A model generated the notes under the pieces. It ran no database searches. It saw nothing but the letters and a program-made list of their open reading frames with translations, and was not told the DNA's origin. Positions 10,744-26,318 of a DNA stretch of 64,000 bases are shown here, in pieces (positions within the stretch are counted from its first letter, which is position 1; the number at the start of each line of letters is the position of its first letter). Location: contig CAZVAZ010000001.1 in NCBI GenBank assembly GCA_964625235.1, positions 857-64,856 of the forward strand, written 5' to 3'. The stretch is from an uncultured Hyphomicrobiales bacterium (GTDB lineage: Bacteria; Pseudomonadota; Alphaproteobacteria; Rhizobiales; JAJFHR01). The translations under genes were made by a program, and so were the position numbers.

Positions 10744-12397
10744 TATTTAACTCGGTTGCACCGGGCTCCGGGCACATGGCTTTTCGCGCTTTGGCAAATC
10801 CACCTTCGGCTACTTCACCGTCAACGCGGGTTGCACCATTTGCGCGTACATAGTCTTCAATGGTCTGTCTGGCTTTAGCCCGAAATATTTCCGGCACTCT
10901 TTGCAATCGCGCCAGACAGGCTGCTGCCCACTCCAGTTCCGTGTGGCAAGTCTCGGCAACAAAGGGTTCCACGTGCTGCGGCAATACCTCGGTGGCGGCA
11001 TCACGCCGGGCGGATTTTTCCGCTCTCAGGCGAATATTTTCCTTCACCGACTGATCGTTCAGTGTGGTCAGTATGGCAGTTGCCGCGGCATTCCAGGCGA
11101 GTGGTTCGAAACCATCGCTAACGGGTGTTTCACTGCCTTCAGTATTGCCGCCAGGCATCATTTTTTTCATCACGTCTTCAACAAAACGGCTAGTGATGAA
11201 TGTATGTCCCTCTGCGTGGGCCTGGCGAATAACCGAGGTGCGGGCGATACCGCGGACAAAATCGGGTGCGCGCGACATCATCGCATCGGCTTCTTCAGAC
11301 CACATGATGGTTTCTTCAGCGATAACATCAAGCGAGGGATAATGGGTCTTTTGACCAATCCAGATGTGACAGGGTGCCACCCTCAACAGGTTTTCCGTAT
11401 TGCCGCCGATGTCGAGTCCTTCATCAGCATGGACGCCAACTTTGCCCACCATCAACAAGCTCGCTTCAACTCTTTCGAGGTATTTTCGGATGGCCTGAAA
11501 CGGTTTTCCTGAAACCAGTTCACAGGTGATGTTGACGCCTTCTTCTTCAGCTACAGTTTTGGCGATGGCAAGATGCGATTGGTAGATTTTTGCAATACCA
11601 TCATCGATCAGTTCCTCGTGCAGCTGTTCCTGCTCTTTGAAACGAAATACCTTGCCCGCCTCATCAGAGAGAACACCGGCAATCTTGTTAAAGGCAACAT
11701 AGTGATAATAAGGATCGTAAGCGGCAACCGCGTGCACATCTGCGCCGGTTTGACGGGCAATCATCAAAGCCGATTTGAGAACCCCGAATGACTGGGGCGA
11801 GCCGTCAATTCCGACAACTATCGGCCCGTCACCAATGCTCATTTTGCGGTGCTTGATCACCAGCACATCAATTGGCGCGCGCCGTACAACGCGTTCACAA
11901 ACGCTGCCGATAATACTGCCTGCAACCGCTCCCAGCCCGCGAGAGCCTAAGGCGAGCACGTCAAATTCACCGGTTTTGGCAGCATCAATGATGCAGGTGT
12001 AGTTTTTGCCTTCGGGACTTAACCTTTTGAAGTTTACATCGGCATTTTTACATTTTTCCTGTGCGTTATCATGATAGCTGTCGGAGATGATACCAAGACC
12101 CTTGCCAATCAGGTCTTCATGCACATCACGCTGATGTTCCATTTCGGTTTCATAGCGATACCGTTCCGGCAATCCGCCTTCCATCTGCTTGAAACGCCGG
12201 TCGTGCATTTTAGCGGCGTAGGCATGAATGCCGATTATGGTTCCATTGATCGGCTTGACCAGTTTGATAGCTTCGAGAACTGCCTGATTGGCGAGATCTG
12301 ATTGATCAAGGGCGACAAGAATATTGTTCAGGCAAACCGGGGCTGAGCTGATCTGTTCATCAGCAATTTTTTCATTAAGCGCCAATGCTGTAGTCAT
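10736..12397 (-). CDS. Tandem universal-stress-protein (Usp) domains fused to three PCP_red-like repeats
   Basis: Two Usp modules (ILVALDQS...GSRGLGAVAGSIIGSVCERVVRRAPIDVLVIK; IVVGIDGS...LLMVGKVG). C-terminal repeats include MWSEEADAMMSRAPDFVRGIARTSV... and LEWAAACLARLQRVPEIFRAKARQTIEDYVRANG.... ATG 12397 has the SD GGAGCAAAAT; the track start 12433 would overlap the upstream mini-ORF. Confidence 0.7.
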   Translation of the reverse strand: MTTALALNEKIADEQISSAPVCLNNILVALDQSDLANQAVLEAIKLVKPINGTIIGIHAYAAKMHDRRFKQMEGGLPERYRYETEMEHQRDVHEDLIGKGLGIISDSYHDNAQEKCKNADVNFKRLSPEGKNYTCIIDAAKTGEFDVLALGSRGLGAVAGSIIGSVCERVVRRAPIDVLVIKHRKMSIGDGPIVVGIDGSPQSFGVLKSALMIARQTGADVHAVAAYDPYYHYVAFNKIAGVLSDEAGKVFRFKEQEQLHEELIDDGIAKIYQSHLAIAKTVAEEEGVNITCELVSGKPFQAIRKYLERVEASLLMVGKVGVHADEGLDIGGNTENLLRVAPCHIWIGQKTHYPSLDVIAEETIMWSEEADAMMSRAPDFVRGIARTSVIRQAHAEGHTFITSRFVEDVMKKMMPGGNTEGSETPVSDGFEPLAWNAAATAILTTLNDQSVKENIRLRAEKSARRDAATEVLPQHVEPFVAETCHTELEWAAACLARLQRVPEIFRAKARQTIEDYVRANGATRVDGEVAEGGFAKARKAMCPEPGATELNND

Positions 12398-12414
12398 ATT
12401 TTGCTCCTGCGATT

Positions 12415-12525
12415 TTATCCGTACAGCAGCCAATAGCCAACAATCAAAGCTATAACTGCAACATTTACAGCCGCACCAGCCAGTACAAAACCGTCAAAGG
12501 CATTAAGCTTTTTCTTGGGTGTCAT
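12415..12525 (-). CDS. 36-aa single-pass membrane mini-protein
   Basis: Manual translation: MTPKKKLNAFDGFVLAGAAVNVAVIALIVGYWLLYG. Basic N-terminus plus one TM helix. It fits exactly between the cupredoxin and Usp genes. Below the track size cutoff. Confidence 0.5.
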   Translation of the reverse strand: MTPKKKLNAFDGFVLAGAAVNVAVIALIVGYWLLYG

Positions 12526-12551: not shown

Positions 12552-13289
12552 TCAGAATGACAGGTCAATTTTGGTGTCTGCGCCAGCAGTGACCTTTACC
12601 TTGCCACTCTTGATCTCACCTAAAAACCCCTGCCACAGCCGAATTTTGTATTCGCCGGGCGGTACGTTATCGATGGTGAATTCACCGTTTTCACCAACAA
12701 CAGCATAATATGGGTTTGAGGCAACAAACATATAGGCGTGCATGAAGTCATGTGCGTCGCACTCAATTTTCATGCCAGCGCCTTTGCGCATTTTTATTTT
12801 TTTGGTTACTTTGTCCCCGGCGTTGGGCTGCGATACGTTTATTGCCGTGCGTCGCGCCCTGCCGATAAGTTCGTAGGTATGAATATTATGCAGGGTTTCG
12901 TCCGAATTCATGGCGGTCAGATTTCCACCATTCGCTATCACTGAGAAGGCAGGAGTAAATTCGCATTTTTTCTGATTGAGAGTTACATTCATCAACTCTT
13001 TCGGAAATGCCTTGCCCTGCTTGACCTTGTAGAGAAAGACAACTGCATTTTTTACTGTGCCGTTTTCTATTATAACAAAGGGAACGGTTCGATTACCTTC
13101 ACCGCAGATTTGCGTATCCTTGGAAATGGTGAATATTTTTGATTTTTCAACAGCGCTGCCTGCCAGGACTTTTCCCGAAATACTGCCACCGTCGGTGACC
13201 TCTATTTCCGTGTACTTTTTGGCTTGAGCCAGTCCGGTAAAACCGACCAGTGCAACTGTGCAAAGCATCCCTTTAAACAGTTTATTCAT
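12552..13289 (-). CDS. Secreted cupredoxin (amicyanin-like type-1 copper site) flanked by carboxypeptidase-regulatory-like Ig segments
   Basis: Signal peptide MNKLFKGMLCTVALVGFTGLAQA. Candidate Cu ligands are HNIH and C-D-A-H-D-F-M (C-x2-H-x2-M, as in amicyanin). C-terminal GEFTIDNVPPGEYKIRLWQ. Confidence 0.65.
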   Translation of the reverse strand: MNKLFKGMLCTVALVGFTGLAQAKKYTEIEVTDGGSISGKVLAGSAVEKSKIFTISKDTQICGEGNRTVPFVIIENGTVKNAVVFLYKVKQGKAFPKELMNVTLNQKKCEFTPAFSVIANGGNLTAMNSDETLHNIHTYELIGRARRTAINVSQPNAGDKVTKKIKMRKGAGMKIECDAHDFMHAYMFVASNPYYAVVGENGEFTIDNVPPGEYKIRLWQGFLGEIKSGKVKVTAGADTKIDLSF

Positions 13290-13324: not shown

Positions 13325-15490
13325 TCAGGCAACGGCTTGAATATCTCCATTGTCCGAATGGCTGAAAAGATCACTAAGAGCTTCGATAGCTACCAGCCAT
13401 ATCCGCTTTTTATCCTCATCCTTGAGAATTTTTAGATATTTATCCGCCGCTTCATTTGCGTTCCAGCCCTTGAGCATGGCGACAATATCGCGGCGGTGCA
13501 TACCATCATGCGCCAGGGTTAATTCAATAAGAATATCCATTTGTGAGCGCCGGCAGGCAAGGGCTTGAGCAGCGGCAATTCGAACCCCGGAATAATTATC
13601 TTCCAGTGCCAGCAACAAGCTCTCCACATGACCTTTCTTGCGACCAAGTGCTGTGACGGCTTCCCGGCGAACATGCACATCTTCATCACCGCACAACTCA
13701 ATAAGGGTTTCTTCAACATCTTTGCCTTTGATGTATGCAAGACAGCGTGCGCTGAGCATTCGAATAAGGCGATCCTGGTGTTGTGTTTCTGTTCGGATTG
13801 CCGGGTACAGGCGTTTTTTCAACTTGCCTCGTGCAGTTCCGATGAGAGCCAGGCTTTCCAGGCAGGCCTGTTTGAGCTCAACGTCATCATCTTCAAGGGC
13901 CTGATTCAGCACCCGGGTTATCCCAGGAAAATCAAAGTCACCCAGCAGACAGGCGGCAAACCGGCGGACATCTTCATGGGGGGCCACCTTGACGTCCAGC
14001 GATACCTTGCTTTTTCTCATTGCCCGCGATTTTGAGATTTTGATGAACTTTTTATCGTCTTCAGAAAGTTCAACTTCCTCAGCTTCCGGCTTTTCTTCCT
14101 CGCCCGGTTCGGTGCGAATTCCATCGCGCAATATCTGGTCCAGTGTCGAAGTGGCCGGGGGTTGTTCTTGGGGTGCAGCAGCCTCAACGTCTTCTGGCGC
14201 TGCTTCTTCTGTGGCGTCACTTTCCTCGACCGCCTCAACAAGTTCTCCGCGAAGGGCTGCCAGGAGACTGTCACCGGCTCTGTTTGGCCATTTGCCTGAG
14301 GCGGCAATTTTTGCCAGGGCAGACATAGTTGAGATACGGATCTGTCTGTTGCTGTTTGCCACAGTATCCAACAGGTAGGGCAAGCCAGCATCGTTGAGCA
14401 GGCTAAGCGCTTCAATTAAGCCAAGTCGAAAAACCAGTGGTTGTTCAGAGTTTTGCAGTGCCCCGCCGAGACTCTTTGCTGATGCCTCTCCGATCAGGGT
14501 TGCCCAGGCAACAGCTGCGGCACCGGCAACATCCGGTATGCCGACAATCGCCGTGCGAACAACTTCTGAAAAGCCTTCTTTTTTGAACGCTTGAGGTTCA
14601 GCGGCAATTGATCTGAAGATTGTCTGCCTGACTTCCGCAGATTTGTCCGACAATCTCTCCATCGCCAGATCAGGTTCTTTTGCGCTTATTGTTTTGGCAA
14701 TCAGGATGCGCACATCAACGTGTTCGTCACTGAAAAACGCGGCAAGACGCGCATCTTCGGGATCAGTATCAATTATTTTCTCGAGGGCAACATAGCGTAC
14801 TTCACCTGCTTTATCGGCCAAACATTTTTGCAAAAGATCATCAATTTCGGCAGATTGCCCCGGCTCCAAAACCGAACAGACCCGGCGGCGCATGCGTGCA
14901 TCACCCTGGTTATATAATGAGGTCAGTGCGGCCACACCTTCGGTGCCCAGTTGGACCAGAACCGGGACTGTAACCTGCGTCAGGTCCTGACCTTCGTCGT
15001 TTTTCAATTCGTTCATAATTACCGCTACGGATTCAGCTGTTCCAATTTTACCGAGCGCCTTGATTGCTGCCAATTGTATGTCCAGCCAGTCATCCCAGCC
15101 CGTAGCGTAATATTCGTCTCCCCAGTTTATCTCTTCATCCCGGCCGGCGACCATTGTGTGCAACCAGGGGACAACCTGTCGATGGTTTGCTTTGGCAAGC
15201 AATTCAATGGCAGACAGTTTGACTTCAGGGCAGGGATCACCGAGAAGATTTTCCATAATGGCACCGGCGGCTTGTGTCTCTTCGAGTTCCAAGAGGGCGG
15301 CTGCGGCATCAGTGCGTACATCTTCATCCTCATCCAGGAGTGCCTGTTGCAGCACTGGTCCGGCTCCGGGATGAGCAATTTTTCCCAACGCTGTTGCAGC
15401 GGCACAACGATGAATATCCACCCCCGACAAAAGGAGTTTGCTCAGTTGGGTAAATGCTCTTTCTTTTGCAGATTTTGCTCTTGTTACCAT
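13325..15490 (-). CDS. HEAT-repeat (PBS-lyase-type) protein, 721 aa, cytoplasmic
   Basis: Many repeats of the D/E-x-VR-x-A-A-x-ALG type (DEDVRTDAAAALLEL, DVHVRREAVTALG, YSGVRIAAAQALA). Acidic linker near the middle. No signal peptide. Confidence 0.75.
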   Translation of the reverse strand: MVTRAKSAKERAFTQLSKLLLSGVDIHRCAAATALGKIAHPGAGPVLQQALLDEDEDVRTDAAAALLELEETQAAGAIMENLLGDPCPEVKLSAIELLAKANHRQVVPWLHTMVAGRDEEINWGDEYYATGWDDWLDIQLAAIKALGKIGTAESVAVIMNELKNDEGQDLTQVTVPVLVQLGTEGVAALTSLYNQGDARMRRRVCSVLEPGQSAEIDDLLQKCLADKAGEVRYVALEKIIDTDPEDARLAAFFSDEHVDVRILIAKTISAKEPDLAMERLSDKSAEVRQTIFRSIAAEPQAFKKEGFSEVVRTAIVGIPDVAGAAAVAWATLIGEASAKSLGGALQNSEQPLVFRLGLIEALSLLNDAGLPYLLDTVANSNRQIRISTMSALAKIAASGKWPNRAGDSLLAALRGELVEAVEESDATEEAAPEDVEAAAPQEQPPATSTLDQILRDGIRTEPGEEEKPEAEEVELSEDDKKFIKISKSRAMRKSKVSLDVKVAPHEDVRRFAACLLGDFDFPGITRVLNQALEDDDVELKQACLESLALIGTARGKLKKRLYPAIRTETQHQDRLIRMLSARCLAYIKGKDVEETLIELCGDEDVHVRREAVTALGRKKGHVESLLLALEDNYSGVRIAAAQALACRRSQMDILIELTLAHDGMHRRDIVAMLKGWNANEAADKYLKILKDEDKKRIWLVAIEALSDLFSHSDNGDIQAVA

Positions 15491-15553: not shown

Positions 15554-15567
15554 TTGACATATGTCAA
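15554..15567. promoter_or_regulatory. FNR-type box TTGACATATGTCAA upstream of the HEAT-repeat operon
   Basis: Perfect palindrome with a TTGA-N6-TCAA core, centred about 70 nt upstream of start codon 15490. Confidence 0.6.
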
Positions 15568-15691: not shown

Positions 15692-18367
15692 TTACACCCC
15701 GATATCGCGCGGTGCAAAAGACATGGACCGGAACGTGTTCTTGTAAGGGGATATGCCGATTTTCTTGATCCTGGCAACGCCCATCTTGAAGTTGTAATTA
15801 CCACTCATCCAGTCAACAACGCGGCCTTCCAGTGCATTTGCAGGCTGTGATGTGTGAAGGAAATCCATATAAAGAACTCCTTTCTTTACCGCCCGGGTGA
15901 CCATGGCTACAGCGGTAACGGCTGCTTCACTGAACTCCACGTTGCCATTTTTCAACTGGCCGGAGAATTTATAATCGTCGCCTTCCACGCCAAGGACTGT
16001 TTCCTTCAGTGAGGGCACACGATCAGAGTAGATCATAACCATATCACCGCTTTCAATGCCACGGGCTTTGGCATCTTCGGTGTTGATTTCAACCCAGTTT
16101 TCAGGCCAGCGCTGCACGATATAGGGGCGACGGCGATCATCAAAACCTGACTGCCAGCGTTCATTTGAACGACCCGATGTGCACCACAATTCGTCATCCT
16201 TGGGTTTCATCCATTCCCAGTAATCCGAAAACCAGGACCATTGCGCCTTTTCAAGATTGCAACGCCCGGTCTGGGAGTTGAAGTGTGTGGTCTTCTTGTT
16301 GACCATGTTGGCTCCGGCAGGGCCGGTTGGCGACAATTTGCGTTGCGTATCGTGCAGTCGTTTTGTGCCAACCAGAGTGCCATCATCCAACATTGACACC
16401 GGGCCCTGAATACCATTGGTGCCAAATTCCCTGAGTTTTTGATGCAGGGTTTTGCCTTCACGTTTGGCTGCCACGTTGATCATGTTGTAATCTTTACGGC
16501 TGCCGCGTGAAAACCGTGCGGTTTCTTCCGCAACTTCGTTGGAGTTTTTCCAGTCAAAGCCTTTAAAGCCCATGCGGGTGGCCAGTTGAGCAATGATCCA
16601 CCAATCCGGTTTTGATTCACCCGGCGGATCATAGAACTTCTGGTACAGCCGCATGCGGCGCTCACCATTGGCGCGCATAAAGTCCTCTTCACCCCAGGTT
16701 GCAGCCGGGAAGATAATGTCCGCAAACTGGTTGCCAATCGGATCGACCAGATAGATGTCCTGGTTAATGATCACCATGCCGCCTGAATCCGCCCGTTTTT
16801 TCAGGGTTTCGATAATCCTCTCTTTATTGAGGGAGCGCACCTGATGAGGATTACCGTTGGTGAGTTCTTGAAACTTGGCGGCCAGCAGGAATGATCCACA
16901 CATGGACTGGATCCAGGTGGTTCCGATGACATGAGCCATGCGGGTGTGACCGGCCATGGTCCAGGTATCGGTGTCAAGTGCCCGACGGCGACGTCCGGGC
17001 AGTTTCATCGGCGATTTGTTGCGTGGATACTTGCCACCTCTGACGCCGCCACGCTGATGCCCGCCGCCGCGACCGATCATCTGGCCAGGTCTGCCGCCGG
17101 CACCGACGATGATGCCCAGAGCAGAGATGGCGACGGTATTACCGGTATTATTTGACCAGTAAAAACCCTTTTCGATCATGATGGATGTTTTCGGGCGCTT
17201 GCCTTTGACAGGTTTTGCCATCATTTCAGCGGCAAGCTGAATTTTCTTTGCATCAATACCCGAAATTTTCGACGCATTTTCCAGCGTGTAATCATCTTGT
17301 GACAACAGCCATTCTTTCCAGTCATCAAAGCCATCGGTCTGGAACTGGCCCCAGGTGGTGCGCCATTGCCACGGCGTGTTACGCGTGCCCTGGCCAAATC
17401 CTGAAGATGATCCCCACTTGTCGTTGACCCAGTTTTTTATCCATTCCTTGTCCTGCCAGCCGTTTTCTACGATGATACGGGCAATTGCATTGACCACAAG
17501 AAGGTCGGTGCCCGGAGTTACATCAAGCCACAGGCCACCATTTTGCTCTATATAGGCGACACCAGCAGTGCGGCGTGGGACCATCATGATGGTTTTCTGT
17601 CCGTTTTGAATGCCTTTCATAATCCACTGGGTGAACAGGATTGTTTTGGTTTCATAAGGATCGGTTCCGCAGATAAACAGTGTTTCTGCATCGCGCCAGT
17701 CTTCATAAGAAGGTGCAAAGTTGTCAAAACCTGCGTTGCGGAAGCCCGGCGTTGAAGATACGTCCGAAGGAGTGTCATGAAAGGTGAAGTTCGCCGTGTT
17801 AATGGATCCGAGCGCGAATTTAGTGATCGCGTAGGTGTTTTCTATAAATTGATAGGAATATGTTTTGACGCCGTAGGCCAAAGGTCCGTGTTTTTCGATC
17901 ACATGTTTGGCAACAGCGGCGGCCACATCAAGAGCCAGATCCCAGGTCACCGGTTGAAGAATGCCGTGAATACGCATTAACGGTGTGGTCAGGCGATCAC
18001 GGGTGGGCGTTTGGGGATTGTAACATTTTTGTGCGATACAGCCACCGCGAAGCGATGAATCACCGTCCGTATTAACCGCTTCAGTGTCCTTGTCAGGCAG
18101 GATTACCACATGGTGGGGTTCATCTTCGTGAAGCACGATATTATGCTGGTTGGGGGCAACCCAGGGCCCGAGCACTTCCACGGGGAAATCGACACCAAAG
18201 GCATTCTCTGAAGCTTTGGCCCCCCCCCGCCTGCCGCCTTTTACCGGCCAGCGATAAACCTTGTAACCGCAGGCGACGACGCAATAATCGCACGCTGTTG
18301 AAATGACATCCGCATCCTTGGGGGGCAGGGGTACATCTGTTTCTGGAATATAATAAGGTGTTGACAT
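15692..18367 (-). CDS. idrA: AioA/IdrA-family molybdopterin oxidoreductase large subunit (putative iodate reductase catalytic subunit)
   Basis: N-terminal 3Fe-4S-type motif CDYCVVACGYKVYRW (C-x2-C-x3-C) followed by ENAFGVDFP. Collinear with arsenite-oxidase-type large subunits through to the C-terminus. GRGGGHQRGG segment. The Idr call rests on the Rieske partner and two peroxidases directly upstream. Confidence 0.7.
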   Translation of the reverse strand: MSTPYYIPETDVPLPPKDADVISTACDYCVVACGYKVYRWPVKGGRRGGAKASENAFGVDFPVEVLGPWVAPNQHNIVLHEDEPHHVVILPDKDTEAVNTDGDSSLRGGCIAQKCYNPQTPTRDRLTTPLMRIHGILQPVTWDLALDVAAAVAKHVIEKHGPLAYGVKTYSYQFIENTYAITKFALGSINTANFTFHDTPSDVSSTPGFRNAGFDNFAPSYEDWRDAETLFICGTDPYETKTILFTQWIMKGIQNGQKTIMMVPRRTAGVAYIEQNGGLWLDVTPGTDLLVVNAIARIIVENGWQDKEWIKNWVNDKWGSSSGFGQGTRNTPWQWRTTWGQFQTDGFDDWKEWLLSQDDYTLENASKISGIDAKKIQLAAEMMAKPVKGKRPKTSIMIEKGFYWSNNTGNTVAISALGIIVGAGGRPGQMIGRGGGHQRGGVRGGKYPRNKSPMKLPGRRRRALDTDTWTMAGHTRMAHVIGTTWIQSMCGSFLLAAKFQELTNGNPHQVRSLNKERIIETLKKRADSGGMVIINQDIYLVDPIGNQFADIIFPAATWGEEDFMRANGERRMRLYQKFYDPPGESKPDWWIIAQLATRMGFKGFDWKNSNEVAEETARFSRGSRKDYNMINVAAKREGKTLHQKLREFGTNGIQGPVSMLDDGTLVGTKRLHDTQRKLSPTGPAGANMVNKKTTHFNSQTGRCNLEKAQWSWFSDYWEWMKPKDDELWCTSGRSNERWQSGFDDRRRPYIVQRWPENWVEINTEDAKARGIESGDMVMIYSDRVPSLKETVLGVEGDDYKFSGQLKNGNVEFSEAAVTAVAMVTRAVKKGVLYMDFLHTSQPANALEGRVVDWMSGNYNFKMGVARIKKIGISPYKNTFRSMSFAPRDIGV

Positions 18368-18384
18368 AACTCTCTTCTCCCGAA

Positions 18385-18969
18385 TTAGCTGTGCAGATTG
18401 TTTTCGCGACCAAAAATAAGTCCGAAAATGCCGGTGGCATAAACACTGTCACCTTCGATTTCGAGCAAAATTTGCGGCAGACTCTGGTAAGCCTGACCCG
18501 AGATCAAAATGCCGTGGCGGGTGAGGTCATAAGTTGAAAGATGAAGCGGACAGGCTCCAAGTGATTTGGTTTCAGCCTTGTAACTTCCCTCCAGTGTGCT
18601 GCCCTGGTGGGTGCAGGCATAATTGTATGCGACAATATCCTGGTCCTTACCTAAACCGCCGCCGGCTTTAACGCCGAGCTTTACCACCATGTTCTCAGAA
18701 TAGGCGCCCTCATCAGGGTAGTTGAAGTCAAACGGTTCATCCTGCTTCAGTTCAGATAATTTACAGATATACTTACGCGGGTAATTGGTGATCTGGGCGG
18801 GCACACTTTTCGCCTCGGCAGTCCCAGCGTTCAAGGTTATCATCACGGTGGCGGTTGTCGCCCCCGTACCAATTAGAAAGTTGCGGCGTGAAACCAGACA
18901 CTTGTGACCGATTTGTTTTGCCAATTTCTTTCTTGACGAGATGTTTTCATAGACAGTTGTTTTGGCCAT
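18385..18969 (-). CDS. idrB: AioB/IdrB-family Rieske [2Fe-2S] small subunit with Tat signal
   Basis: Twin-arginine signal SRRNFLIGTGATTATV. Rieske ligand motifs CTHQG and CPLH. AioB-like C-terminus GLIFGRENNL. Confidence 0.75.
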   Translation of the reverse strand: MAKTTVYENISSRKKLAKQIGHKCLVSRRNFLIGTGATTATVMITLNAGTAEAKSVPAQITNYPRKYICKLSELKQDEPFDFNYPDEGAYSENMVVKLGVKAGGGLGKDQDIVAYNYACTHQGSTLEGSYKAETKSLGACPLHLSTYDLTRHGILISGQAYQSLPQILLEIEGDSVYATGIFGLIFGRENNLHS

Positions 18970-18981
18970 TTTGGGTCCCCT

Positions 18982-20136
18982 TTAATTTTTTGCCGGATTG
19001 GGCAATGGCGCATATGGTGGAAGTTTTGGTGGTTCGATTACCAGTTCCTCCCCGCTGAAGGCATCAAGGAAAGCCACCAGATCTTCGACTTCTTTTTCAG
19101 ACAGTCCCAGCGGCTTGACTAAAGGCGATTTGCTTTTCGCCATGGTGCCATCGGTAAAATCATTTTCGCCGCCACCCTGGTTGTAAAATTCAACAACCTC
19201 GGTCAGATCCCAGAACGCACCATTGTGCATATAAGGAGCGGTGTACTTGAGATAACGCAGAGGGGCGGTCCTGAACTTGCCCATGTCGACCTTTTGCTTG
19301 GTGCGGTAATAGAGACCTGCATCGTCTTTTATTTTACGATACATTTCCTGCGTCACGCCTTTGGCATATTGCTCATAGCGGAAGGTGATTTGGGCCAGGC
19401 CGTCTTCTTCCCACCGTTCGGAAGGAGGTACACCCAGGTTATAATATTTCTGGTCGGTGGCAAGAGCGCCATTATGGCAGGCAATACAACCAGCCTTGCC
19501 ATTAAACAGCTCCATGCCGCGTACCTGCTGAGTGCTGAGGGCTTTTTTGTCACCACGCAAATATTTATCCAATGGTGTATTGTTGTGGATCATCGTGCGT
19601 TCGAACGATGCAATGGCCTTCCAGGCATCTGAAATCAACGGCCATTCAGTGCCAAATGCTTCTTTGAAAAGTTTGCGGTATTCCGGGATGAAAGCCAGTC
19701 GTGCTTCCATCACATCATTTTCACCATTGCCGGCAACGGCCCCTTTGGCGGCACTTGGAGCCTGCTTTTCCAAAGACGAGGCTGCACCGACCCAGAACAG
19801 TTTCAACAGGTAAGCAGAGTTTACCACCGTTTGACTGTTGCGCCAGTGAACTGTGCCGGGATAACCGCGTGACAATGCATCACCAAACCCCCAACCCTGA
19901 TCGGGCTCGTGACAGGTAACACAGCCGGTGGATGCATCACCACCAAGCCGGGGGTCCCAGAATAACATCTTGCCAAGCTTGATTTTAACTTCCGACTGCT
20001 TGTTATCCAGTGGGATGGGAGGATCTCCCAGAGGTGCTAAAGGTGGCACGTCTGATCCCGCATATGCCATGCCAGCAGTGATGGCAGTGATGAGCGCTCC
20101 AGCAAGGAGACCCGATATTTTCTTTGTATATTTCAT
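18982..20136 (-). CDS. Dihaem cytochrome c peroxidase (CCP/MauG family), IdrP-like
   Basis: Signal peptide. Two haem c motifs (CVTCHEPDQGW and CIACHNGA). FRTAPLRYLKYTAPYMHNG family motif. Confidence 0.85.
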   Translation of the reverse strand: MKYTKKISGLLAGALITAITAGMAYAGSDVPPLAPLGDPPIPLDNKQSEVKIKLGKMLFWDPRLGGDASTGCVTCHEPDQGWGFGDALSRGYPGTVHWRNSQTVVNSAYLLKLFWVGAASSLEKQAPSAAKGAVAGNGENDVMEARLAFIPEYRKLFKEAFGTEWPLISDAWKAIASFERTMIHNNTPLDKYLRGDKKALSTQQVRGMELFNGKAGCIACHNGALATDQKYYNLGVPPSERWEEDGLAQITFRYEQYAKGVTQEMYRKIKDDAGLYYRTKQKVDMGKFRTAPLRYLKYTAPYMHNGAFWDLTEVVEFYNQGGGENDFTDGTMAKSKSPLVKPLGLSEKEVEDLVAFLDAFSGEELVIEPPKLPPYAPLPNPAKN

Positions 20137-20154
20137 CGAATTATCTCCCTTGAT

Positions 20155-21276
20155 CTAGTTTTTTACAGCGCGCCAGTTTTTAATGGCGGTATAATTGGTG
20201 GGGATTTTTTTCTTCCAGACAAATTCCTTGGTGTTCAGTGGATCGCCTGTCAGAGCCTCCAGGAAGTCAACAAGATCCTGTTGCTCAACGAATGTCAGTT
20301 TGAGCGGCTTTAAATCCGGGTTTTTGTTTTTGTCTTCACCGCCACCTTGATTGTAAAAAGCAACCACTTCAAATAGCGATTTAAACATGCCGTTGTGCAT
20401 ATAAGGTGCTGTGAATTTCAATTCGCGCAAAGTCGGTGTAACGAACTTTCCAACATTGGAGCCATCGACTTTGGGGTTGATAATACCTGCACCGACGTCA
20501 CGGCGGATATTCATGATATTTTCAATGCCCATAAATGTGCCAAAGGCTACATAAGTCATATGACGCATTGGATCAGACCAGATTTCCGGATTTTCCGGAA
20601 CACCCAGATTATATGCTTTGTCGTTGGTGAAATTTGCCCCGCTATGGCAGGCGGCACATTGAGCTTTGCCTTTAAACAAGTCATATCCGCGTTTGGCCGA
20701 TGCTGTCATGGACCCTTTGTCAAAGGGGGAGTTGCGCGAAGTCAGTGTTTTCAAATACTCAGGTATGGCTTTTCGGACCGCACCGTTGGAAGGCTCGCCA
20801 TAGCCAGCATCTTTAAACATCTTTACATATACAGGGTCCTGCTTGAGGCGCTCCTGCATCAGGCGCATGTCCATGTTCATGATGTAATCTTCAGTGATCA
20901 TCTCGCGTGTGACATCATTCAGATTGGTGCCAATGCGACCGTCAAGGAACCAGTTTTTACGGACTGCGGTATTTATCAAGGTAGGTGTGTTGCGAAACCC
21001 TTTTGAACCCGGATAGGCTTTGGACAAAGCCAGACCGTCGCTGAAGCCTTTGTCAGGCTGGTGGCAGGTGGCACAACTGATTGCGGCATCGCCGGACAGC
21101 CTTGGGTCAAAAAATAAACGTTTGCCCAGTTCGGCTTTTTTGGCATCGACCTTGATCTGTTTTATTGGCCCCTGACCGTCCTGGCCAGCAATTACGGTAC
21201 CCGATAAAACAAAAAAACCAATCAGCCCCACGGACAGCGCCAGCATACATTGTGTTTTGCTACCGAACGTCTTCAT
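20155..21276 (-). CDS. Dihaem cytochrome c peroxidase (CCP/MauG family), IdrP-like paralog
   Basis: CATCHQPDKGF and CAACHSG haem motifs, plus FVTPTLRELKFTAPYMHNG. ATG 21276 has the SD AAGGGAG and begins a signal peptide (MKTFGSKTQCMLALSVGLIGFF). The track start 21378 lies inside the FNR box. Confidence 0.85.
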   Translation of the reverse strand: MKTFGSKTQCMLALSVGLIGFFVLSGTVIAGQDGQGPIKQIKVDAKKAELGKRLFFDPRLSGDAAISCATCHQPDKGFSDGLALSKAYPGSKGFRNTPTLINTAVRKNWFLDGRIGTNLNDVTREMITEDYIMNMDMRLMQERLKQDPVYVKMFKDAGYGEPSNGAVRKAIPEYLKTLTSRNSPFDKGSMTASAKRGYDLFKGKAQCAACHSGANFTNDKAYNLGVPENPEIWSDPMRHMTYVAFGTFMGIENIMNIRRDVGAGIINPKVDGSNVGKFVTPTLRELKFTAPYMHNGMFKSLFEVVAFYNQGGGEDKNKNPDLKPLKLTFVEQQDLVDFLEALTGDPLNTKEFVWKKKIPTNYTAIKNWRAVKN

Positions 21277-21364: not shown

Positions 21365-21378
21365 TTGACGAATGTCAA
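21365..21378. promoter_or_regulatory. FNR-type box TTGACGAATGTCAA upstream of the peroxidase/Rieske/molybdoenzyme operon
   Basis: TTGAC-N4-GTCAA, centred about 95 nt upstream of ATG 21276. Confidence 0.55.
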
Positions 21379-21460: not shown

Positions 21461-23728
21461 CTATGCAGAAAATTTGCGCCGCTGCAACCGCACCAACCCC
21501 AGGAACAACAGGCCGGCAAACAGACCTGTTCCGGCTGGAACAGCGAAAAGGGTTAACCTGTCTTCGCGTGCGCCCAGCTTCAGCCAGTACCATGAGGTAA
21601 GAGAATGGCGGCCACCTTTTTCACCTGCAAGCCCATCCCAGTTGGCAAAGGAAATCGGTATGTATTTTTCTTCCTCAAATTGTAAATCCAGCGCATTGTC
21701 CGTAACCAGACTGCGGTTGAAAACAACCCGCCACTGTCCATTTTTCCAAACGCCTTTTGCTGCAAGTACACCTGCGGCATTACGTGGGGTGGGGGGAAGA
21801 TCGGGCCCGTTTGCATCCAGCAATATGGTGCGCGCATCGTCTTTGGGTTCAACACTCGGTGCCTGCCAGTACCACATGTTAACAGCACGTTTTTTATCGC
21901 CGTGACGAAATCCGGGCTTTTCGGTTGTAACAGGAATTATTCGCGGCAACTGAATAGCAATTGCATCGCGGGATGGCTTTACACCAGCCAGTCTGTATTG
22001 TTTCTCCAGCTTGTCTCCCGGCACCGAATAGGTGCGGTCATCCACATCAACGCGTATGGCCAGATTCTTGTCATTGAAGAGAACGCGGATTGTGACCTGG
22101 TCGTTCAGGGAAAAGAATAATCGCGGCTCCTTGATAATGTTCGGCGCCATGGCAAATGTCATCGGCGATGCTTTATCCCATTCAGGATCGCCTGGTTCTG
22201 TTGGAAGCTCACCATCCACGCGCAGGGCATTGATAACTGTTTCGCCCTGAGACAGCTGAACGGCGGTGTTTCTTAACGACATAACATAATTGGAAATGTT
22301 CCAACGATCATCTGTTGACATAGCGGTTGTATGCTCAGGCATTGGAGTGGAGCGAATACCCGTTGAGATACGTTCAAACACATCTTTCACCGTTTTGGTG
22401 AAGCGCCAGGTCTCCGGTCGTGTCAGGTTGCGTGGCCAAATGCGGTCTTGCCAATCATCTTTCAGTTTTTTGCCGGAGGTAATATTACCACGCCCGGACA
22501 GCCCGTGACATTGTGCGCAGGATTTCACAAACAATTTCCAGCCTTTGGCGATTGACACAGGCGAGGTTTTTACCTGTTGGCCAGGATCAATGGGTATGTT
22601 CTCAAGCTCTTCTTCATCCCACTCACCAAACTTCTTGATTTTCAATATCAGACCGTCCACTTCGCGTGGAGTGAGAAAGGATTTCCATGGTGGCATGGAT
22701 GTACCCGGCAGACCTTGCAGAATAATCTTGCGCAGATCGTCGTCATAGGGAAATTCATTATCTGCACTGGTTGTCTTGTATTTGAATGAGCCCAGGGTGA
22801 AGTCGCGCGGTTTGGGGTAGAGAAATTCAGCCGCCGGGCCTGCACCATCACCTTCCACACCATGACACTGGGCACAGCGTTTGGCGTAAACAGTCCCGAT
22901 TGAAGCTTCCTCAGTTTCTGTATTCTTTAAGGAAGCAGCAGTCTCTGCTGTCTTGTCCTGGGGCTTTTCAAGTTCCCATGATCGCGGTGCATAGCCGGTG
23001 TAATCATAAAGGAATGTGATGAGTTTCCAGATATCATCTTCCTTCAACGTCTCTTTCCAGGCTGGCATGGCAGATGCCCACGGCGTACCTTCGCGCGGCA
23101 GACCGGGGCCGCCGGTGGTTATGCGCCAGAACAGGTATGATTCCTGCAATTGCGCAATAGTGCCAACATCCTGAAAATTAATCGGCCGGGGGTTGAATGC
23201 CGGAGCAAAAATCCCGGCACCATCAAGCGTGTCACCGTGGCAAAATAAACAATTCCTGTAGTAAAGTTTGCTGCCTTCTTCCACCGCTTTTAGATAACCT
23301 TCAGAACCTTTTGGATTGGCATCACGGACCGGGTTGGTCAATTTGAGCAGGTTGAAGGTTTTGCCATAGACCTTGAGTGATGAAGGTGGTGCGGGGTGCA
23401 CCGTGCGCAGTTCTACCGGCGAGGCCGTTGTTGGCTTTATCTTGCTGTAGGTGACGCCAGCGACGCCACCAACAATCACAATCAGGGCAAACCCGCGGGC
23501 CACGGCCATTTTCGGGCTGCCCAGAAGGGTAGTAATTGGCGCGGCGAACCTTTTGGCGCTAGTATTCTCGAAAGTTGCTACCAGGACAACTGCGACCGCT
23601 ATGATTATCATATACTGAATGACGATCGATTGCGGTAAGGGTGGCGAAATAATTTGTGTGAACAGCACGTAGGCACCGACAAGTGTCAGAATAGACAGAA
23701 ACAGGGGATGTGAAAAAAAACGCTTCAT
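21461..23728 (-). CDS. Membrane-anchored trihaem cytochrome c fused to an EB_dh (ethylbenzene dehydrogenase gamma/DOMON-like) haem-binding domain
   Basis: N-terminal TM helices. Three CxxCH motifs (CLFCH, CAQCH, CAQCH). C-terminal domain has the pattern PEWDKASPM...IRVLFNDKNLAIRVDVDD...DAIAIQL...VNMWYWQA...WKNGQWRVVFNRSL...FANWDG, followed by a terminal TM helix. Confidence 0.75.
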   Translation of the reverse strand: MKRFFSHPLFLSILTLVGAYVLFTQIISPPLPQSIVIQYMIIIAVAVVLVATFENTSAKRFAAPITTLLGSPKMAVARGFALIVIVGGVAGVTYSKIKPTTASPVELRTVHPAPPSSLKVYGKTFNLLKLTNPVRDANPKGSEGYLKAVEEGSKLYYRNCLFCHGDTLDGAGIFAPAFNPRPINFQDVGTIAQLQESYLFWRITTGGPGLPREGTPWASAMPAWKETLKEDDIWKLITFLYDYTGYAPRSWELEKPQDKTAETAASLKNTETEEASIGTVYAKRCAQCHGVEGDGAGPAAEFLYPKPRDFTLGSFKYKTTSADNEFPYDDDLRKIILQGLPGTSMPPWKSFLTPREVDGLILKIKKFGEWDEEELENIPIDPGQQVKTSPVSIAKGWKLFVKSCAQCHGLSGRGNITSGKKLKDDWQDRIWPRNLTRPETWRFTKTVKDVFERISTGIRSTPMPEHTTAMSTDDRWNISNYVMSLRNTAVQLSQGETVINALRVDGELPTEPGDPEWDKASPMTFAMAPNIIKEPRLFFSLNDQVTIRVLFNDKNLAIRVDVDDRTYSVPGDKLEKQYRLAGVKPSRDAIAIQLPRIIPVTTEKPGFRHGDKKRAVNMWYWQAPSVEPKDDARTILLDANGPDLPPTPRNAAGVLAAKGVWKNGQWRVVFNRSLVTDNALDLQFEEEKYIPISFANWDGLAGEKGGRHSLTSWYWLKLGAREDRLTLFAVPAGTGLFAGLLFLGLVRLQRRKFSA

Positions 23729-23730: not shown

Positions 23731-24564
23731 TTATTCCGGCAGGTTTTTTATATAATCAATGATCAGGTTCAATTCGCTCACCCGCATCTGCTCGCCAAAG
23801 TCATCCGGCATTATTTCCGCCTCAAAGCCTTCGGTGATTTCTGCATTGGGGTTGATAATTGCTTCGGCAATCTTGGCATCATCCATTTTTTTGGAAAGAC
23901 CATTCAATTTGGGGCCGATATCGGCCTCAGACCCCTCCAGATCATGACAGGCACCGCAACTGAACTTATCCAACGCTGCAACCGCTGTGGTTGCGGGGCC
24001 TTCTTCGTCATCACCGTCTTCACTGCTGGTAACAGGTGTTTCATCCGCACTTGGCAGGGGTACTGTGGGTGTGAGCCCGGCCCTGTCCTGCATAAAAGCG
24101 GTTATTGCATTTATCTCAACAGCGGACAGTGAGATTGGTGGCGAGTCAATTTTTGGCATTTGACTGATCGTATCGCCGGAGCCCTTTTTGCCAAATCCAG
24201 CAACCACATATATCGAAGGATCCAGCATTGATTCATGGAGATACTCGCCAATCGCTTCTGCCCCCTGTTTGGTTTTGGCAGCACCGGTGTAACGCGGATC
24301 AGCAAGGCGCTCGGGGAGAACCCTGGCGAGATCGAGTGCCAGAAGATCAGGAGCGCGAAGCCGCTTGTTGTGACACAGGGTGCAGGTGCCTTTACCGGAA
24401 AACAGTTGTTCCCCAAGCGATACCATGCCCGTCATATTGAGGCTGGCCGTATCAATTTCCTCTTCTGCGGGCGGGTCTCCCTGCACTTGCGGCAATATAT
24501 TGGCAAACCCGGTGTAAATGAGCAGGACAAAGAGCGAAAAACCCATAACGCGAAGGAAGGTCAT
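23731..24564 (-). CDS. Membrane-anchored dihaem cytochrome c
   Basis: N-terminal TM helix. CTLCH and CGACH haem motifs separated by an acidic linker. 4-nt overlap with the CydA-like gene. Confidence 0.8.
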   Translation of the reverse strand: MTFLRVMGFSLFVLLIYTGFANILPQVQGDPPAEEEIDTASLNMTGMVSLGEQLFSGKGTCTLCHNKRLRAPDLLALDLARVLPERLADPRYTGAAKTKQGAEAIGEYLHESMLDPSIYVVAGFGKKGSGDTISQMPKIDSPPISLSAVEINAITAFMQDRAGLTPTVPLPSADETPVTSSEDGDDEEGPATTAVAALDKFSCGACHDLEGSEADIGPKLNGLSKKMDDAKIAEAIINPNAEITEGFEAEIMPDDFGEQMRVSELNLIIDYIKNLPE

Positions 24565-26318
24565 GCCGGTTTTTCCTGCCTGGTTTCACCCAGCCTGGAA
24601 AGCCAGAAGACGAAAACCATAATTGCCATGAAACTCAACGTGATGATCGTGATTGTATTGCCGGCTTCTCCAATTGTGGGAATATAGGCTTCAGGGGATT
24701 TGTCTTTCATGATGGTGTAAACATGCCAGTTGGTGCGAAGGCTTGAGCGGATATACCCCATCAAACCCATCAGCCAGGTGAAGGCCACCGGCAGGACGAA
24801 CAAAGCATATTGCGAACGCTCGGGCATGCGGCCCCAATGTACCTTGGTGGTTTTGGCACCCCGTAACATAAAGACGTCAATGACGACGGCAAAAATGATG
24901 ATCGACAGTGTGGTTATCACCTGAGGAACCGAAGCGCCTACTTTATAGACTGTCGGCGTGAGATAGCCGTAGATGCCCGCTGCAATAATATTGGCACAAC
25001 CAATCACGTAAAGTGCGATGATCACCATGTTTCCCTGCCTGGCCCAGGAGACGGTGGGTATGCGGCTGGAGCGATAGAACATCTGAAACGACAGAAAGGT
25101 AAAAACCAGCATCAGATTCACAGCTGTATTCTTGGCAGGCATAATACCAAGTGGCCCCAGAAACTTGTGGCCAACCCCGCCCAGCTGGCGGATTTCCTCA
25201 GTGGTCAAAATGAGTGAGTTCGGTGTCACCCAGACTAAAAACCCGATGACAATGACAGCGGCTATATATTTGACATATTTGGCGTATTCAGCGCCACGGT
25301 CGGTGCGCATCAGACCGCACCACAGATAGTAGTTGGCGGCGAGCACGATGGTGCCGATAAGCACCGCCTGAATGATAAACAACCAGGCCAGGATGCCGCC
25401 CATGGCGGTAATGCCCATCTGCTGCGAATAGGCATAGACTTCGGCCATGAGCCAGTATCCGGCAAAAGGCAGGGGCAGAAAACCGGCGACGGCGATGAAA
25501 TTTGAGGTGTAACCCATCCAGTCATAATGGGCTTTGAGTTCCTTGTTCTTCTCAGCCAGGAACATATAGGCGGCATATCCTCCGACAATGGCTCCGCCAT
25601 AAGCGATATTGGCTAAAAATCGATGCAGATTAACCGGGTTCCACAAGGGATTGCGGGTGGCTTCCCATACGCTGCCAACCACGGCACCTGTGGCGGGATC
25701 AACCCCGGCGGGCGACATCATGAACGTTGCCCAGGCGTTGGCCACAAACATCAATGTCAGCCCGACGGTATTGAGCACAAGACCGATAGACATATGACAC
25801 CACTTGGCGTTGCCGTAACGCAAGGCTTTCCAGGAATAATAATAAAGGTAAAGCGTCACCGATTCCAAAAGAAACAGCAGGGCGTAAAGAAGCATCTGAC
25901 CTTTAAAAACCTTCATCAGATACCCCATCAGATGGGGATAAAGTACAAACAATCCCAGCGCCAGAGAGCCGCCAAACAGGGCCGTCAGTGAATAGGCCGA
26001 CATGGTGATTCTCATGAATTCGTATGCCATGTTATCATAGCGTTCATCACCGGTCACATGGCCCAGAAACTCCATTGAAATTGCAAATAACGGCACAGCG
26101 AGCACGAAGGCTGCCAGGAATAAATGCATTTGCGCCAGACCCCAGACCAAGGTGCGCGAGTTAATGCCGGCTATTTTGGGGTAATCTGCCCGGCCGGGTC
26201 TGGGAGCGCCTGCTGCAACGTCGCCCGCATCGGTTGCCGCAAGCACAAGTTCTGGAAACAGAACCAGCAAGGCCACAGCAAGGAGGATGAAGAGACTTGA
26301 AAAATTTCTAAAGTTCAT
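24561..26318 (-). CDS. Cytochrome bd subunit-I-like (CydA-like) polytopic membrane protein; no CydB partner and no recognisable Q-loop
   Basis: Collinear CydA landmarks: LAQMHLFLAAFVLAVPL (His19 region), FLLESVTLYLYYYSW (FFLES region), MFVANAWATFM (VANGWMQ region), NLHRFLANIAYGG (His186 region). 585 aa, strongly hydrophobic throughout. Confidence 0.75.
   Translation of the reverse strand: MNFRNFSSLFILLAVALLVLFPELVLAATDAGDVAAGAPRPGRADYPKIAGINSRTLVWGLAQMHLFLAAFVLAVPLFAISMEFLGHVTGDERYDNMAYEFMRITMSAYSLTALFGGSLALGLFVLYPHLMGYLMKVFKGQMLLYALLFLLESVTLYLYYYSWKALRYGNAKWCHMSIGLVLNTVGLTLMFVANAWATFMMSPAGVDPATGAVVGSVWEATRNPLWNPVNLHRFLANIAYGGAIVGGYAAYMFLAEKNKELKAHYDWMGYTSNFIAVAGFLPLPFAGYWLMAEVYAYSQQMGITAMGGILAWLFIIQAVLIGTIVLAANYYLWCGLMRTDRGAEYAKYVKYIAAVIVIGFLVWVTPNSLILTTEEIRQLGGVGHKFLGPLGIMPAKNTAVNLMLVFTFLSFQMFYRSSRIPTVSWARQGNMVIIALYVIGCANIIAAGIYGYLTPTVYKVGASVPQVITTLSIIIFAVVIDVFMLRGAKTTKVHWGRMPERSQYALFVLPVAFTWLMGLMGYIRSSLRTNWHVYTIMKDKSPEAYIPTIGEAGNTITIITLSFMAIMVFVFWLSRLGETRQEKPA

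Follow-up and report, generated by a model that had tools for sequence, protein, structure and literature searches.

The locus described here raises the question of whether a four-gene operon, idrP2-idrP1-idrB-idrA, encodes an iodate reductase or an arsenite oxidase. The operon consists of the minus-strand genes within positions 15692-21276 of a 64-kb stretch of DNA from an uncultured Hyphomicrobiales bacterium (the window). The initial annotation had suggested a probable iodate reductase, whereas the public labels point to the other answer: the named relatives of the window IdrA, in both of the IdrA clades described below, are all called arsenite oxidase or 'arsenate reductase (azurin)' large subunit in PGAP and JGI names. 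Based on the clade, the gene order, the motifs and the genomic context, we conclude that the operon most probably encodes a periplasmic, molybdenum-dependent iodate reductase (probability of roughly 0.8), in line with the initial annotation, and that the arsenite-oxidase labels on IdrA relatives are a systematic misannotation.

The operon and the family of its catalytic subunit

The four genes, all predicted from the DNA, are as follows (aa, amino acids; Tat, twin-arginine translocation).

15692..18367, minus strand: idrA, predicted catalytic molybdopterin subunit of iodate reductase, 891 aa, no signal peptide
18385..18969, minus strand: idrB, Tat-exported Rieske [2Fe-2S] small subunit, 194 aa
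18982..20136, minus strand: idrP1, di-haem cytochrome c peroxidase paralog adjoining idrB, 384 aa
20155..21276, minus strand: idrP2, di-haem cytochrome c peroxidase paralog, first of the four genes, 373 aa from the ATG at 21276

These open reading frames (ORFs) lie where the initial annotation had placed an idrP-idrP-idrB-idrA-like operon. The reading frame of idrP2 continues open to a TTG at 21378, with an AGGGAG sequence 7 nucleotides (nt) before the ATG. As the successive genes are separated by 18, 12 and 17 nt, co-transcription of all four is likely.

IdrA combines the Pfam domains Rieske_3 (3Fe-4S), Molybdopterin and Molydop_binding. Its 3Fe-4S motif, read from the translation as C26-x2-C29-x3-C33-x70-S104, includes the AioA-type C-x2-C-x3-C noticed initially, its N-terminus has no hydrophobic stretch, and its calculated mass is 100.1 kDa, compared to 99.4 kDa for the IdrA of Roseovarius azorensis (PMC11445184). 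IdrB, encoded just upstream and already recognized as a Tat-exported Rieske subunit, exhibits the twin-arginine motif SRRNFL and the Rieske motif C-T-H-x18-C-P-L-H (Pfam Rieske); it is 51% identical to the IdrB of Azonexus NCP973 and 40% identical to the AioB of NT-26. The two remaining proteins are dihaem cytochrome c peroxidase paralogs, as expected, each matching Pfam CCP_MauG and containing two CxxCH motifs. IdrP1 (E 2.3e-38; CVTCH and CIACH) has a hydrophobic N-terminal signal and bacterial di-haem peroxidases as its closest solved structures; IdrP2 (E 6.9e-41; CATCH and CAACH) has a signal peptide. The pair is orthologous one-to-one with the peroxidase pair of Azonexus, IdrP1 being 58% identical to the second Azonexus peroxidase and IdrP2 49% identical to the first. 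We use the name P1 for the peroxidase adjoining idrB, which presumably follows the order of accession numbers in Azoarcus DN11 (PMC10149662). The motifs listed for Idr proteins, namely CX2CX3CX70S in IdrA, CXHX18CX2H with a Tat signal in IdrB, and two CX2CH with a Sec signal in each peroxidase (PMC10149662), are all found in the four window proteins.

The window IdrA has numerous close relatives. The first homolog search returned 1476 of them, the top 120 being all 74-96% identical to the window protein, and a scan of one genome per species found a relative in at least 534 genomes. The nearest one belongs to a deep-sea metagenome-assembled genome (MAG; L001), being 96% identical in protein and 86.7% identical in DNA over 13 kb, followed by an Anderseniella MAG and Hyphomicrobiales MAGs at ~91%. 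The window IdrA is also 81% identical to that of an alphaproteobacterial MAG from the Arabian Sea (L036) and 75% identical to that of Labrenzia alba, which appears in Table S3 of dissimilatory iodate-reduction gene carriers (PMC8692401). A second homolog search, seeded with the Azonexus IdrA, brought out a freshwater/groundwater clade. When the plasmid collection was searched by tblastn, Vibrio THAF190c (66%), Azonexus hydrophilus NCP973 (48.8%) and Thiothrix (48.6%) were recovered, whereas every annotated AioA (NT-26, NT-25, Agrobacterium, Thermus HB8 and Ralstonia) reached only 27-31%. A clean identity gap separates IdrA-type relatives from annotated AioA.

The family was further resolved by a neighbour-joining tree (Kimura distances, 50 sequences, 801 columns, 100 bootstraps) comprising, besides relatives of the window protein and Azonexus, sequences of named genomes and of validated AioA, members standing for the 50%-identity clusters that an exhaustive search had given, and distant outgroups. 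The window IdrA belongs to a marine clade with 100% bootstrap support, together with Labrenzia alba, Roseibium, Ruegeria, Pseudovibrio, the Arabian Sea oxygen-minimum-zone MAG and Vibrio; inside this clade, the alphaproteobacterial relatives are 74-96% identical to the window IdrA. The marine clade, the Azonexus clade and one deeper representative (P0123) form a group with 100% support, and the AioA of NT-26, Hydrogenophaga and Thermus form a separate clade, also with 100% support. The initial annotation had proposed a maximum-likelihood tree as a check; by the neighbour-joining placement, the 891-aa protein is not nested inside bona fide AioA.

Gene order leads in the same direction. Loci were compared for the best 80 of at least 534, all of them from Alphaproteobacteria. 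The order idrP2-idrP1-idrB-idrA is identical in 80/80, as far as each locus reaches, and in the 68 loci without truncation on the upstream side all four genes can be seen. Azonexus NCP973, which is one of five isolated dissimilatory iodate reducers (PMC13455634), has a locus with these four genes arranged in this order as well.

The function of such operons is known from relatives. The idrABP1P2 genes were defined in Pseudomonas SCT and Denitromonas, and knockout of idrA in Denitromonas abolished iodate respiration (PMC8692401). The same paper describes a score of at least 640 on the IdrA profile HMM of Reyes-Umana et al. as a criterion for the family. Three marine aerobic Alphaproteobacteria, Roseovarius azorensis, Notoacmeibacter marinus as well as Aliiroseovarius sediminilitoris, reduce iodate under static conditions, and the IdrA of R. 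azorensis was found in an activity-stained band and is induced by iodate under static conditions (PMC11445184). The IdrA of oxygen-minimum-zone MAGs (Alphaproteobacteria and SAR324), which include Fu_MAG_99 and Arabian10_MAG_27, form a distinct clade, two members of which reduced iodate in E. coli (PMC13455634). The window operon appears to agree with idrABP1P2 in every sequence feature that separates it from aioBA in the literature: the clade, the two peroxidases in order, the Tat-Rieske subunit, the 3Fe-4S motif and the absence of aioXSR (PMC8692401, PMC10149662).

Several points weigh against this assignment. IdrA passes the AioA model TIGR02693 (arsenite_ox_L), albeit marginally (406.5 bits for a cut-off of 359), and the pass of IdrB on TIGR02694 (arsenite_ox_S; 112.9 bits for a cut-off of 95.65) is likewise marginal. 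The tree was computed by neighbour joining and not by maximum likelihood, its sole validated IdrA is that of Azonexus NCP973, those of Pseudomonas SCT, Denitromonas IR-12, Azoarcus DN11, R. azorensis and Fu_MAG_99 having been left out, and the sister pairing of the marine and Azonexus clades has a bootstrap value of only 59%. The window IdrA is only 49% identical to the Azonexus IdrA, the sole isolate-validated IdrA compared. Finally, the assignment draws on the sequence of the window protein and on its relatives, from which all the biochemistry comes, and the substrate range (bromate, chlorate, selenate), for which the initial annotation had left room, is beyond what a sequence can tell. With regard to the family models, the passes do not decide the identity of the proteins, because these models do not exclude IdrA; being marginal, they account for the systematic misnaming as arsenite oxidase.

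The catalytic pocket and the alternatives it bears on

The residues of the active site were compared using NT-26 AioA (PDB 4AAY), which is the best solved relative of the window IdrA, at only 274 bits, and the 50-sequence alignment. We take His195, Glu203, Arg419 and His423 (A. faecalis numbering) to be the active-site tetrad of AioA. The AioA segment HNRPAYNSE pairs with HDTPSDVSS in the window, where the His is kept and Glu203 is replaced by Ser205, and the AioA segment R-L-G-G-H-Q-E pairs with R-G-G-G-H-Q-R, where both Arg and His are kept, as had been noted for the R-G-G-G-H segment. Three of the four tetrad residues (His, Arg, His) are thus retained, and the Glu is replaced.

The initial annotation had also claimed that the acidic residue following the conserved His is missing. 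This holds for the Glu203 column, where Ser205 is invariant in 19 aligned relatives of the marine clade, but the segment keeps two other acidic residues, D198 and D202. Moreover, the loss appears to be a trait of the marine clade and not of all IdrA, because the Azonexus clade exhibits an Asp in this column (HDKCSATND). Members of the marine clade all read H-D-T-P-S-D-V-(S/T)-(S/A) and G-G-H-Q-R-G, whereas AioA reads H-N-R-P-A-Y-N-S-E and G-G-H-Q-E-G; the Azonexus pocket also shows GGHQCG. From these alignments, HD(T/K) instead of HNR and HQR instead of HQE appear to be more general signatures of IdrA. The column of AioA Ala199, presumably the position of the Mo ligand in other members of the family, is occupied by Ser201 in the window IdrA.

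The marine pocket differs from that of the isolate-validated clade, with Ser instead of Asp in the Glu203 column and T-P instead of K-C/K-P, which could suit an Idr-type reductase acting on an oxidant other than iodate (bromate, chlorate, selenate, or a reactive species of iodine or oxygen). The enzyme could also act as an electron sink or detoxifier under oxygen limitation and not in energy-conserving respiration, as the alphaproteobacterial hosts studied are aerobes that reduce iodate chiefly in static culture, with a physiological role described as unclear (PMC11445184). The tests in a heterologous host discriminate rather poorly in this respect, since E. coli with an empty vector already reduces ~28% of the iodate (PMC13455634). 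However, iodate at 0.1 uM induces idrA in R. azorensis, whose activity band reduces iodate (PMC11445184), and iodate is alone among such oxyanions in being present at a steady level in seawater, ~0.45 uM (PMC8692401). We consider a different oxidant or role rather unlikely.

A divergent AioBA, which would oxidize arsenite and hand the electrons on to cytochrome c or azurin, would agree with the database names, with the model passes and with AioA being the nearest solved structures. As in the AioBA of Alcaligenes faecalis (1G8K) and of Rhizobium/Pseudorhizobium NT-26 (4AAY), the large subunit has a 3Fe-4S cluster site and a predicted molybdenum bis-molybdopterin guanine dinucleotide (Mo-bis-MGD) site, the small subunit is of the Tat-Rieske type, and the equivalents of His195, Arg419 and His423 are kept. 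In contrast to AioBA, the window enzyme shares only ~30% identity with validated AioA, falls outside the AioA clade and its 100% support, and has Ser for Glu203, HDT for HNR and HQR for HQE. The genomic context is also different. In the 64-kb window, AioX, AioS, AioR, ArsR and arsenic transporters have no homolog (tblastn, E<=1e-3; Pfam survey), in accordance with the initial annotation, whereas aioX, aioS and aioR are found directly upstream of aioBA in NT-26. The aio locus of Hydrogenophaga comprises a PhnD-like binding protein, a kinase and a sigma-54 regulator, and that of Cytobacillus pst and ars genes; the phosphate/arsenate transport genes near aioBA in NT-26, Hydrogenophaga or Cytobacillus have no homologs in the window (tblastn). 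In addition, the two peroxidases of the operon are absent from aio loci (PMC8692401). Taken together, these differences make an arsenite oxidase highly improbable.

The surrounding island and its predicted regulation

The operon is located within a ~19-kb island carrying four FNR/FixK-type boxes. The exact motif TTGA-N6-TCAA occurs at 7 sites in the 64 kb, for 1.53 expected, and 0/100 shuffles reach 7. Four of the seven boxes are intergenic, and each of these precedes one of the island's units (those of the regulator gene, a HEAT-repeat gene, idrP2 and small ORF 1):

7277-7290, no strand: FNR/FixK-type box before the Crp/Fnr-family regulator gene
7345..8070, plus strand: Crp/Fnr-family regulator (FixK/FnrL-like), with weak sub-threshold matches to FixK (64 bits), Fnr and FnrL
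15554..15567, no strand: FNR/FixK-type box TTGACATATGTCAA, between idrA and the HEAT-repeat gene
21365..21378, no strand: FNR/FixK-type box TTGACGAATGTCAA, ~95 nt upstream of idrP2
26673..26686, no strand: FNR/FixK-type box TTGACCAAGATCAA, ~75 nt upstream of small ORF 1

The last of these boxes likely marks the start of the upstream transcription unit. Among the related loci, a box is present at most 450 nt upstream of idrP2 in 31/67, for ~2.5 expected, and upstream of the HEAT gene in 18/60 (17 times at a distance of 37-77 nt, once at 117 nt); in 8/38, a box is found 343-379 nt from the start codon of the bd-like gene described below. Roseibium, Labrenzia, Pseudovibrio and Polycladidibacter carry homologs of the regulator gene in divergent orientation immediately upstream of idrP2, and Profundibacter has one beside the island. 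The classical TTGAT-N4-ATCAA with one mismatch is not enriched in the window (3 sites for 3.3 expected), and generic sigma-70 and terminator scans of the window gave nothing interpretable. As the TTGA-N6-TCAA boxes are enriched and positionally conserved and a Crp/Fnr-type gene is adjacent, these data support oxygen-responsive control of the island by a Crp/Fnr-type regulator at the predicted boxes. Such an oxygen-limited induction would agree with the induction observed in static cultures of R. azorensis.

Upstream of idrP2, the island comprises a block of predicted membrane and haem proteins:

21461..23728, minus strand: tri-haem cytochrome c fused to an NxrC/EbdC-like haem-b domain, 755 aa, membrane-anchored
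23731..24564, minus strand: di-haem cytochrome c (CTLCH and CGACH), 277 aa, N-terminal hydrophobic anchor, Pfam Cytochrom_C
24561..26318, minus strand: cytochrome-bd-subunit-I-like (bd-like) membrane protein, 585 aa, ~12 hydrophobic segments
26325..26453, minus strand: small ORF 2, 42 aa, one transmembrane helix, motif MEAQGLPV, unannotated
26482..26604, minus strand: small ORF 1, 40 aa, one transmembrane helix, motif FFWWLLIYDHGV, unannotated

The 755-aa protein exhibits three CxxCH motifs, N- and C-terminal hydrophobic segments, and the Pfam domains Cytochrome_CBB3/Cytochrom_C and EB_dh, with 85 bits on TIGR03477 (DMSO_red_II_gam). Its residues 278-485 match a di-haem cytochrome of Kuenenia (6h5l_B, E 4e-37), and weak matches are observed with EbdC and with the NxrC of Kuenenia (7b04_C, E 5.9e-6 over 57 residues). 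The bd-like protein matches Pfam Cyt_bd_oxida_I (E 1.8e-16) in its N-terminal half only, the similarity to CydA spanning the first approximately five helices. Its H65, E152 and H232 are paired with identical residues in the alignment with CydA from the PDB, and we take these to be the haem-ligand positions of CydA. The AlphaFold model of this protein has a moderate mean confidence (pLDDT, predicted local distance difference test, of 66.8), and its top Foldseek matches are the CydA chains of every solved bd oxidase, with a probability of 1.0 and template-modelling (TM) scores of only 0.4-0.5. No gene for a CydB partner is present near the bd-like gene. The two small ORFs are conserved just upstream of the bd-like gene in 13 loci (tblastn); both are called as genes in Profundibacter amoris (41 aa for ORF 1, 42 aa for ORF 2), and ORF 1 is called as a 40-aa gene in another locus (L089). 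Both probably serve as small subunits in the bd-like complex.

The bd-like gene and the two cytochrome genes form a triad, in which the di-haem cytochrome gene keeps its place between the other two in related loci. The 755-aa gene is present in 38/80 loci, and the triad lies at most 10 kb from idr in 38 of the 63 assessable ones. In 13 of these it has the place that it has in the window, upstream of idrP2, and in the other 25 it is found downstream of the 245-aa gene described below. The triad copies of the downstream arrangement (type II) are only ~40% identical to that of the window. The linkage of the triad and idr has been kept through rearrangement and divergence, which argues for functional coupling. 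The same extended island is found in Profundibacter amoris (L087; CP032125.1, 308005-329762), a cultured deep-sea isolate with a complete genome, in the order Crp regulator, ferrochelatase, small ORFs, bd-like gene, cytochromes, idrP2P1BA and HEAT gene, and L089 has the same architecture. Twenty-five loci with full flanks, mostly from cultured Roseibium, Ruegeria and Pseudovibrio, have no triad. Conversely, on a JGI contig (3300032277, 318052-339866; L088), the triad and Usp, radical-SAM and HemY genes occur with a PAS kinase and a sigma-54 regulator, and no idr gene is found in the 10 kb downstream of the triad, where a transposase fragment follows instead. The triad and idr are therefore often, but not always, linked.

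Oxidation of iodide to iodate would bring very little energy. For this reason, and because the FNR-type boxes point to low-oxygen induction, the experimental results for idr clusters are all reductive and the operon peroxidases fit the release of an oxidant during reduction, there is very little to be said for the oxidative direction, in which the Mo enzyme would oxidize iodide, HOI (hypoiodous acid) or another compound and pass electrons via the cytochromes to the bd-like protein as terminal oxidase, even though AioAB, the closest characterized relative, is an oxidase, and a similar module accompanies nitrite oxidoreductase (NXR) in Nitrospira, Nitrospina and anammox bacteria, with one bd-like paralog proposed as a terminal oxidase (PMC6606698).

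Downstream of idrA, five further genes on the minus strand complete the island:

13325..15490, minus strand: HEAT-repeat protein, 721 aa, predicted cytoplasmic, no signal peptide, Pfam HEAT_2 (1.5e-44) and HEAT_PBS
12552..13289, minus strand: 245-aa periplasmic protein with a signal peptide and a C-terminal prealbumin-like beta-sandwich
10736..12433, minus strand: Usp and PCP_red protein (Pfam Usp 1.7e-36, PCP_red 5e-18), start codon uncertain
9469..10743, minus strand: AhbD/NirJ2-type radical SAM/SPASM enzyme (Pfam Radical_SAM, SPASM and a C-terminal PCP_red)
8075..9472, minus strand: HemY-type protoporphyrinogen/coproporphyrinogen oxidase (TIGR00562, 276 bits for a cut-off of 97.85; Pfam Amino_oxidase)

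The HEAT gene immediately follows idrA in 51 of the 70 loci with enough flank. In the 245-aa protein, H134-N135 and C177-x2-H180-x-F182-M183 are invariant in 28 homologs, and we take this His-Asn ... Cys-x2-His-x2-Met arrangement to be the pattern of an amicyanin-type blue copper site. Pfam (at E<=10) and a profile search of the PDB matched only the C-terminal beta-sandwich (fn3_3/CarboxypepD_reg at residues 194-243). When the protein was aligned by hhalign with amicyanin (an approximate sequence), the four ligand positions were in register, with P=0.04 and 1% probability, and its single-sequence AlphaFold model is unusable (pLDDT 39). The 245-aa protein is therefore a possible copper protein, a lead that comes from its invariant residues and is without statistical support. 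A copper carrier would fit, as AioAB uses azurin and bacterial peroxidases can use pseudoazurin.

The Usp/PCP_red gene is co-located in 15/80 loci and also occurs in L088. The radical SAM enzyme scores 300 bits on TIGR04055 (NirJ2) and 286 bits on TIGR04545 (AhbD), both under the cut-off of 500. The sub-cluster at 8075-15490 (HEAT/PBS-lyase-like, Usp and PCP_red, radical SAM and HemY) could correspond to an oxygen-independent route to haem b via coproporphyrin, or to haem modification. The tetrapyrrole-related gene sets of Profundibacter and L089 additionally hold a ferrochelatase.

Elsewhere, the window carries ordinary genes of the transporter, amidase, sulfatase, TauD and acyl-CoA carboxylase types. 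It matched no Rfam family and contains no tRNA, and it exhibits neither an integrase nor a clear GC shift that would mark a mobile island. At 57678-59465 on the plus strand, a 595-aa protein belongs to the animal haem peroxidase family (Pfam An_peroxidase, 2.5e-14), a superfamily with members that can oxidize halides; this gene is 36 kb from the iodate reductase, and its presence may be a coincidence. At 60048-63990 on the minus strand, a YcaO cyclodehydratase-family gene (62157..63515) lies by a BTAD-domain regulator (60048..62102) and a 160-aa ORF, which may constitute a small peptide-modification locus. An organosulfur-related run at 36896-46258 on the minus strand contains a sulfatase, a TauD-family dioxygenase, an ABC transporter and a phosphosulfolactate synthase (ComA) homolog.

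Proposed mechanism and comparison with known systems

Based on the literature on relatives, the Tat signal of IdrB would carry the cofactor-loaded IdrA into the periplasm, where electrons would pass from the Rieske [2Fe-2S] cluster of IdrB to the [3Fe-4S] cluster of IdrA and on to Mo-bis-MGD. Iodate would be reduced at the Mo centre, probably to hypoiodous acid and then to iodide. The Sec-exported di-haem peroxidases, which co-purify with IdrA, probably clear the H2O2 or other oxidant generated. From the window itself, we infer that the Crp/Fnr-type regulator would turn on expression under oxygen limitation via the TTGA-N6-TCAA boxes, that the HemY and AhbD-like enzymes would supply haem when oxygen is scarce, and that the HEAT protein may act in cofactor or assembly steps. 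More tentatively, electrons from the quinol pool might reach IdrB and the peroxidases via the bd-like protein with its two small subunits, the cytochromes (di-haem and tri-haem/haem-b) and perhaps the copper protein.

This leads us to a broader proposal, to which we give somewhat less than even odds: in marine Alphaproteobacteria, mostly uncultured, and in Profundibacter amoris, the iodate reductase would be wired to the quinone pool by a membrane complex of its own (a CydA-like protein, two 40-aa subunits, cytochromes and possibly a blue-copper carrier), resembling the NXR bd-like module in its parts, with dedicated haem-synthesis genes under Fnr control. Our literature searches returned no report tying a bd-like module or a HEAT-repeat protein to idr or iodate, and the 2026 oxygen-minimum-zone paper (PMC13455634) does not mention cytochromes or neighbouring genes. 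The idr system itself is already known, with idrABP1P2 reported from 2020 to 2022, the marine aerobic alphaproteobacteria in 2024 and the expression of MAG clusters in 2026. The window operon is an intact copy of a described, well-populated iodate-reductase family and is in itself of low novelty; the conserved accessory block beside idr might be the only part new to a specialist.

The value of the operon is mainly corrective, as public arsenite-oxidase labels are opposed to the evidence for iodate reductase across at least 534 species genomes. Such mislabelling bears on the inferences made on the arsenic and iodine cycles from marine metagenomes. Iodate reduction in low-oxygen seawater yields iodide, which controls the deposition of ozone at the sea surface and the emission of iodine to the atmosphere. 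If the neighbouring block is really coupled to the enzyme, it is a candidate electron source for Idr in marine alphaproteobacteria, whereas published models assume the bc1 complex and cytochrome c. The bd-like module would then serve generally to couple periplasmic molybdoenzymes to the membrane, and Profundibacter amoris is a cultured heterotroph in which a module resembling that of nitrifiers and anammox bacteria could be dissected genetically.

Compared with known systems, the window operon has the same four genes, order and cofactor motifs as the idrABP1P2 of Pseudomonas sp. SCT, Denitromonas iodatirespirans IR-12, Azoarcus sp. DN11, Aromatoleum TC-10 and Azonexus hydrophilus NCP973. With respect to Azonexus, it differs in belonging to a separate marine clade, with 49% IdrA identity and a Ser instead of an Asp in the Glu203 column. 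The surroundings also differ. On the Azonexus NCP973 plasmid (235994-256648; L082), idr is preceded by genes for a histidine kinase and a sigma-54 regulator and followed by moaA and a gene for a small cytochrome c, and IS21 and Tn7-like genes are close by, whereas the window exhibits predicted Fnr-type control and the bd-like/cytochrome/HEAT block. The resemblance to the marine alphaproteobacterial idr clusters (PMC11445184; PMC13455634) extends to the host class, the marine habitat and the ~100 kDa subunit, and the oxygen-limited expression in these hosts (PMC11445184) fits the FNR-type boxes of the window. Unlike the window, the inspected loci of cultured Roseibium, Ruegeria and Pseudovibrio have no bd-like/cytochrome block.

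The closest parallel to this block comes from NXR systems. A bd-like protein, two c-type cytochromes and an alternative NxrC form a cluster conserved in Nitrospira, Nitrospina and anammox bacteria, which was proposed to anchor nitrite oxidoreductase and link it to the quinone pool (Mundinger et al., PMC6606698). The window block is built from the same kinds of parts, beside another periplasmic molybdoenzyme. In contrast to the NXR module, the cytochrome c and NxrC-like parts are fused in the 755-aa protein, and the partner enzyme belongs to the Aio/Idr branch in the window, whereas it belongs to the Nar/Nxr branch in NXR systems. The likeness of the two modules is one of make-up, with hints at the sequence level from the Kuenenia NxrC and di-haem cytochrome matches of the 755-aa protein.

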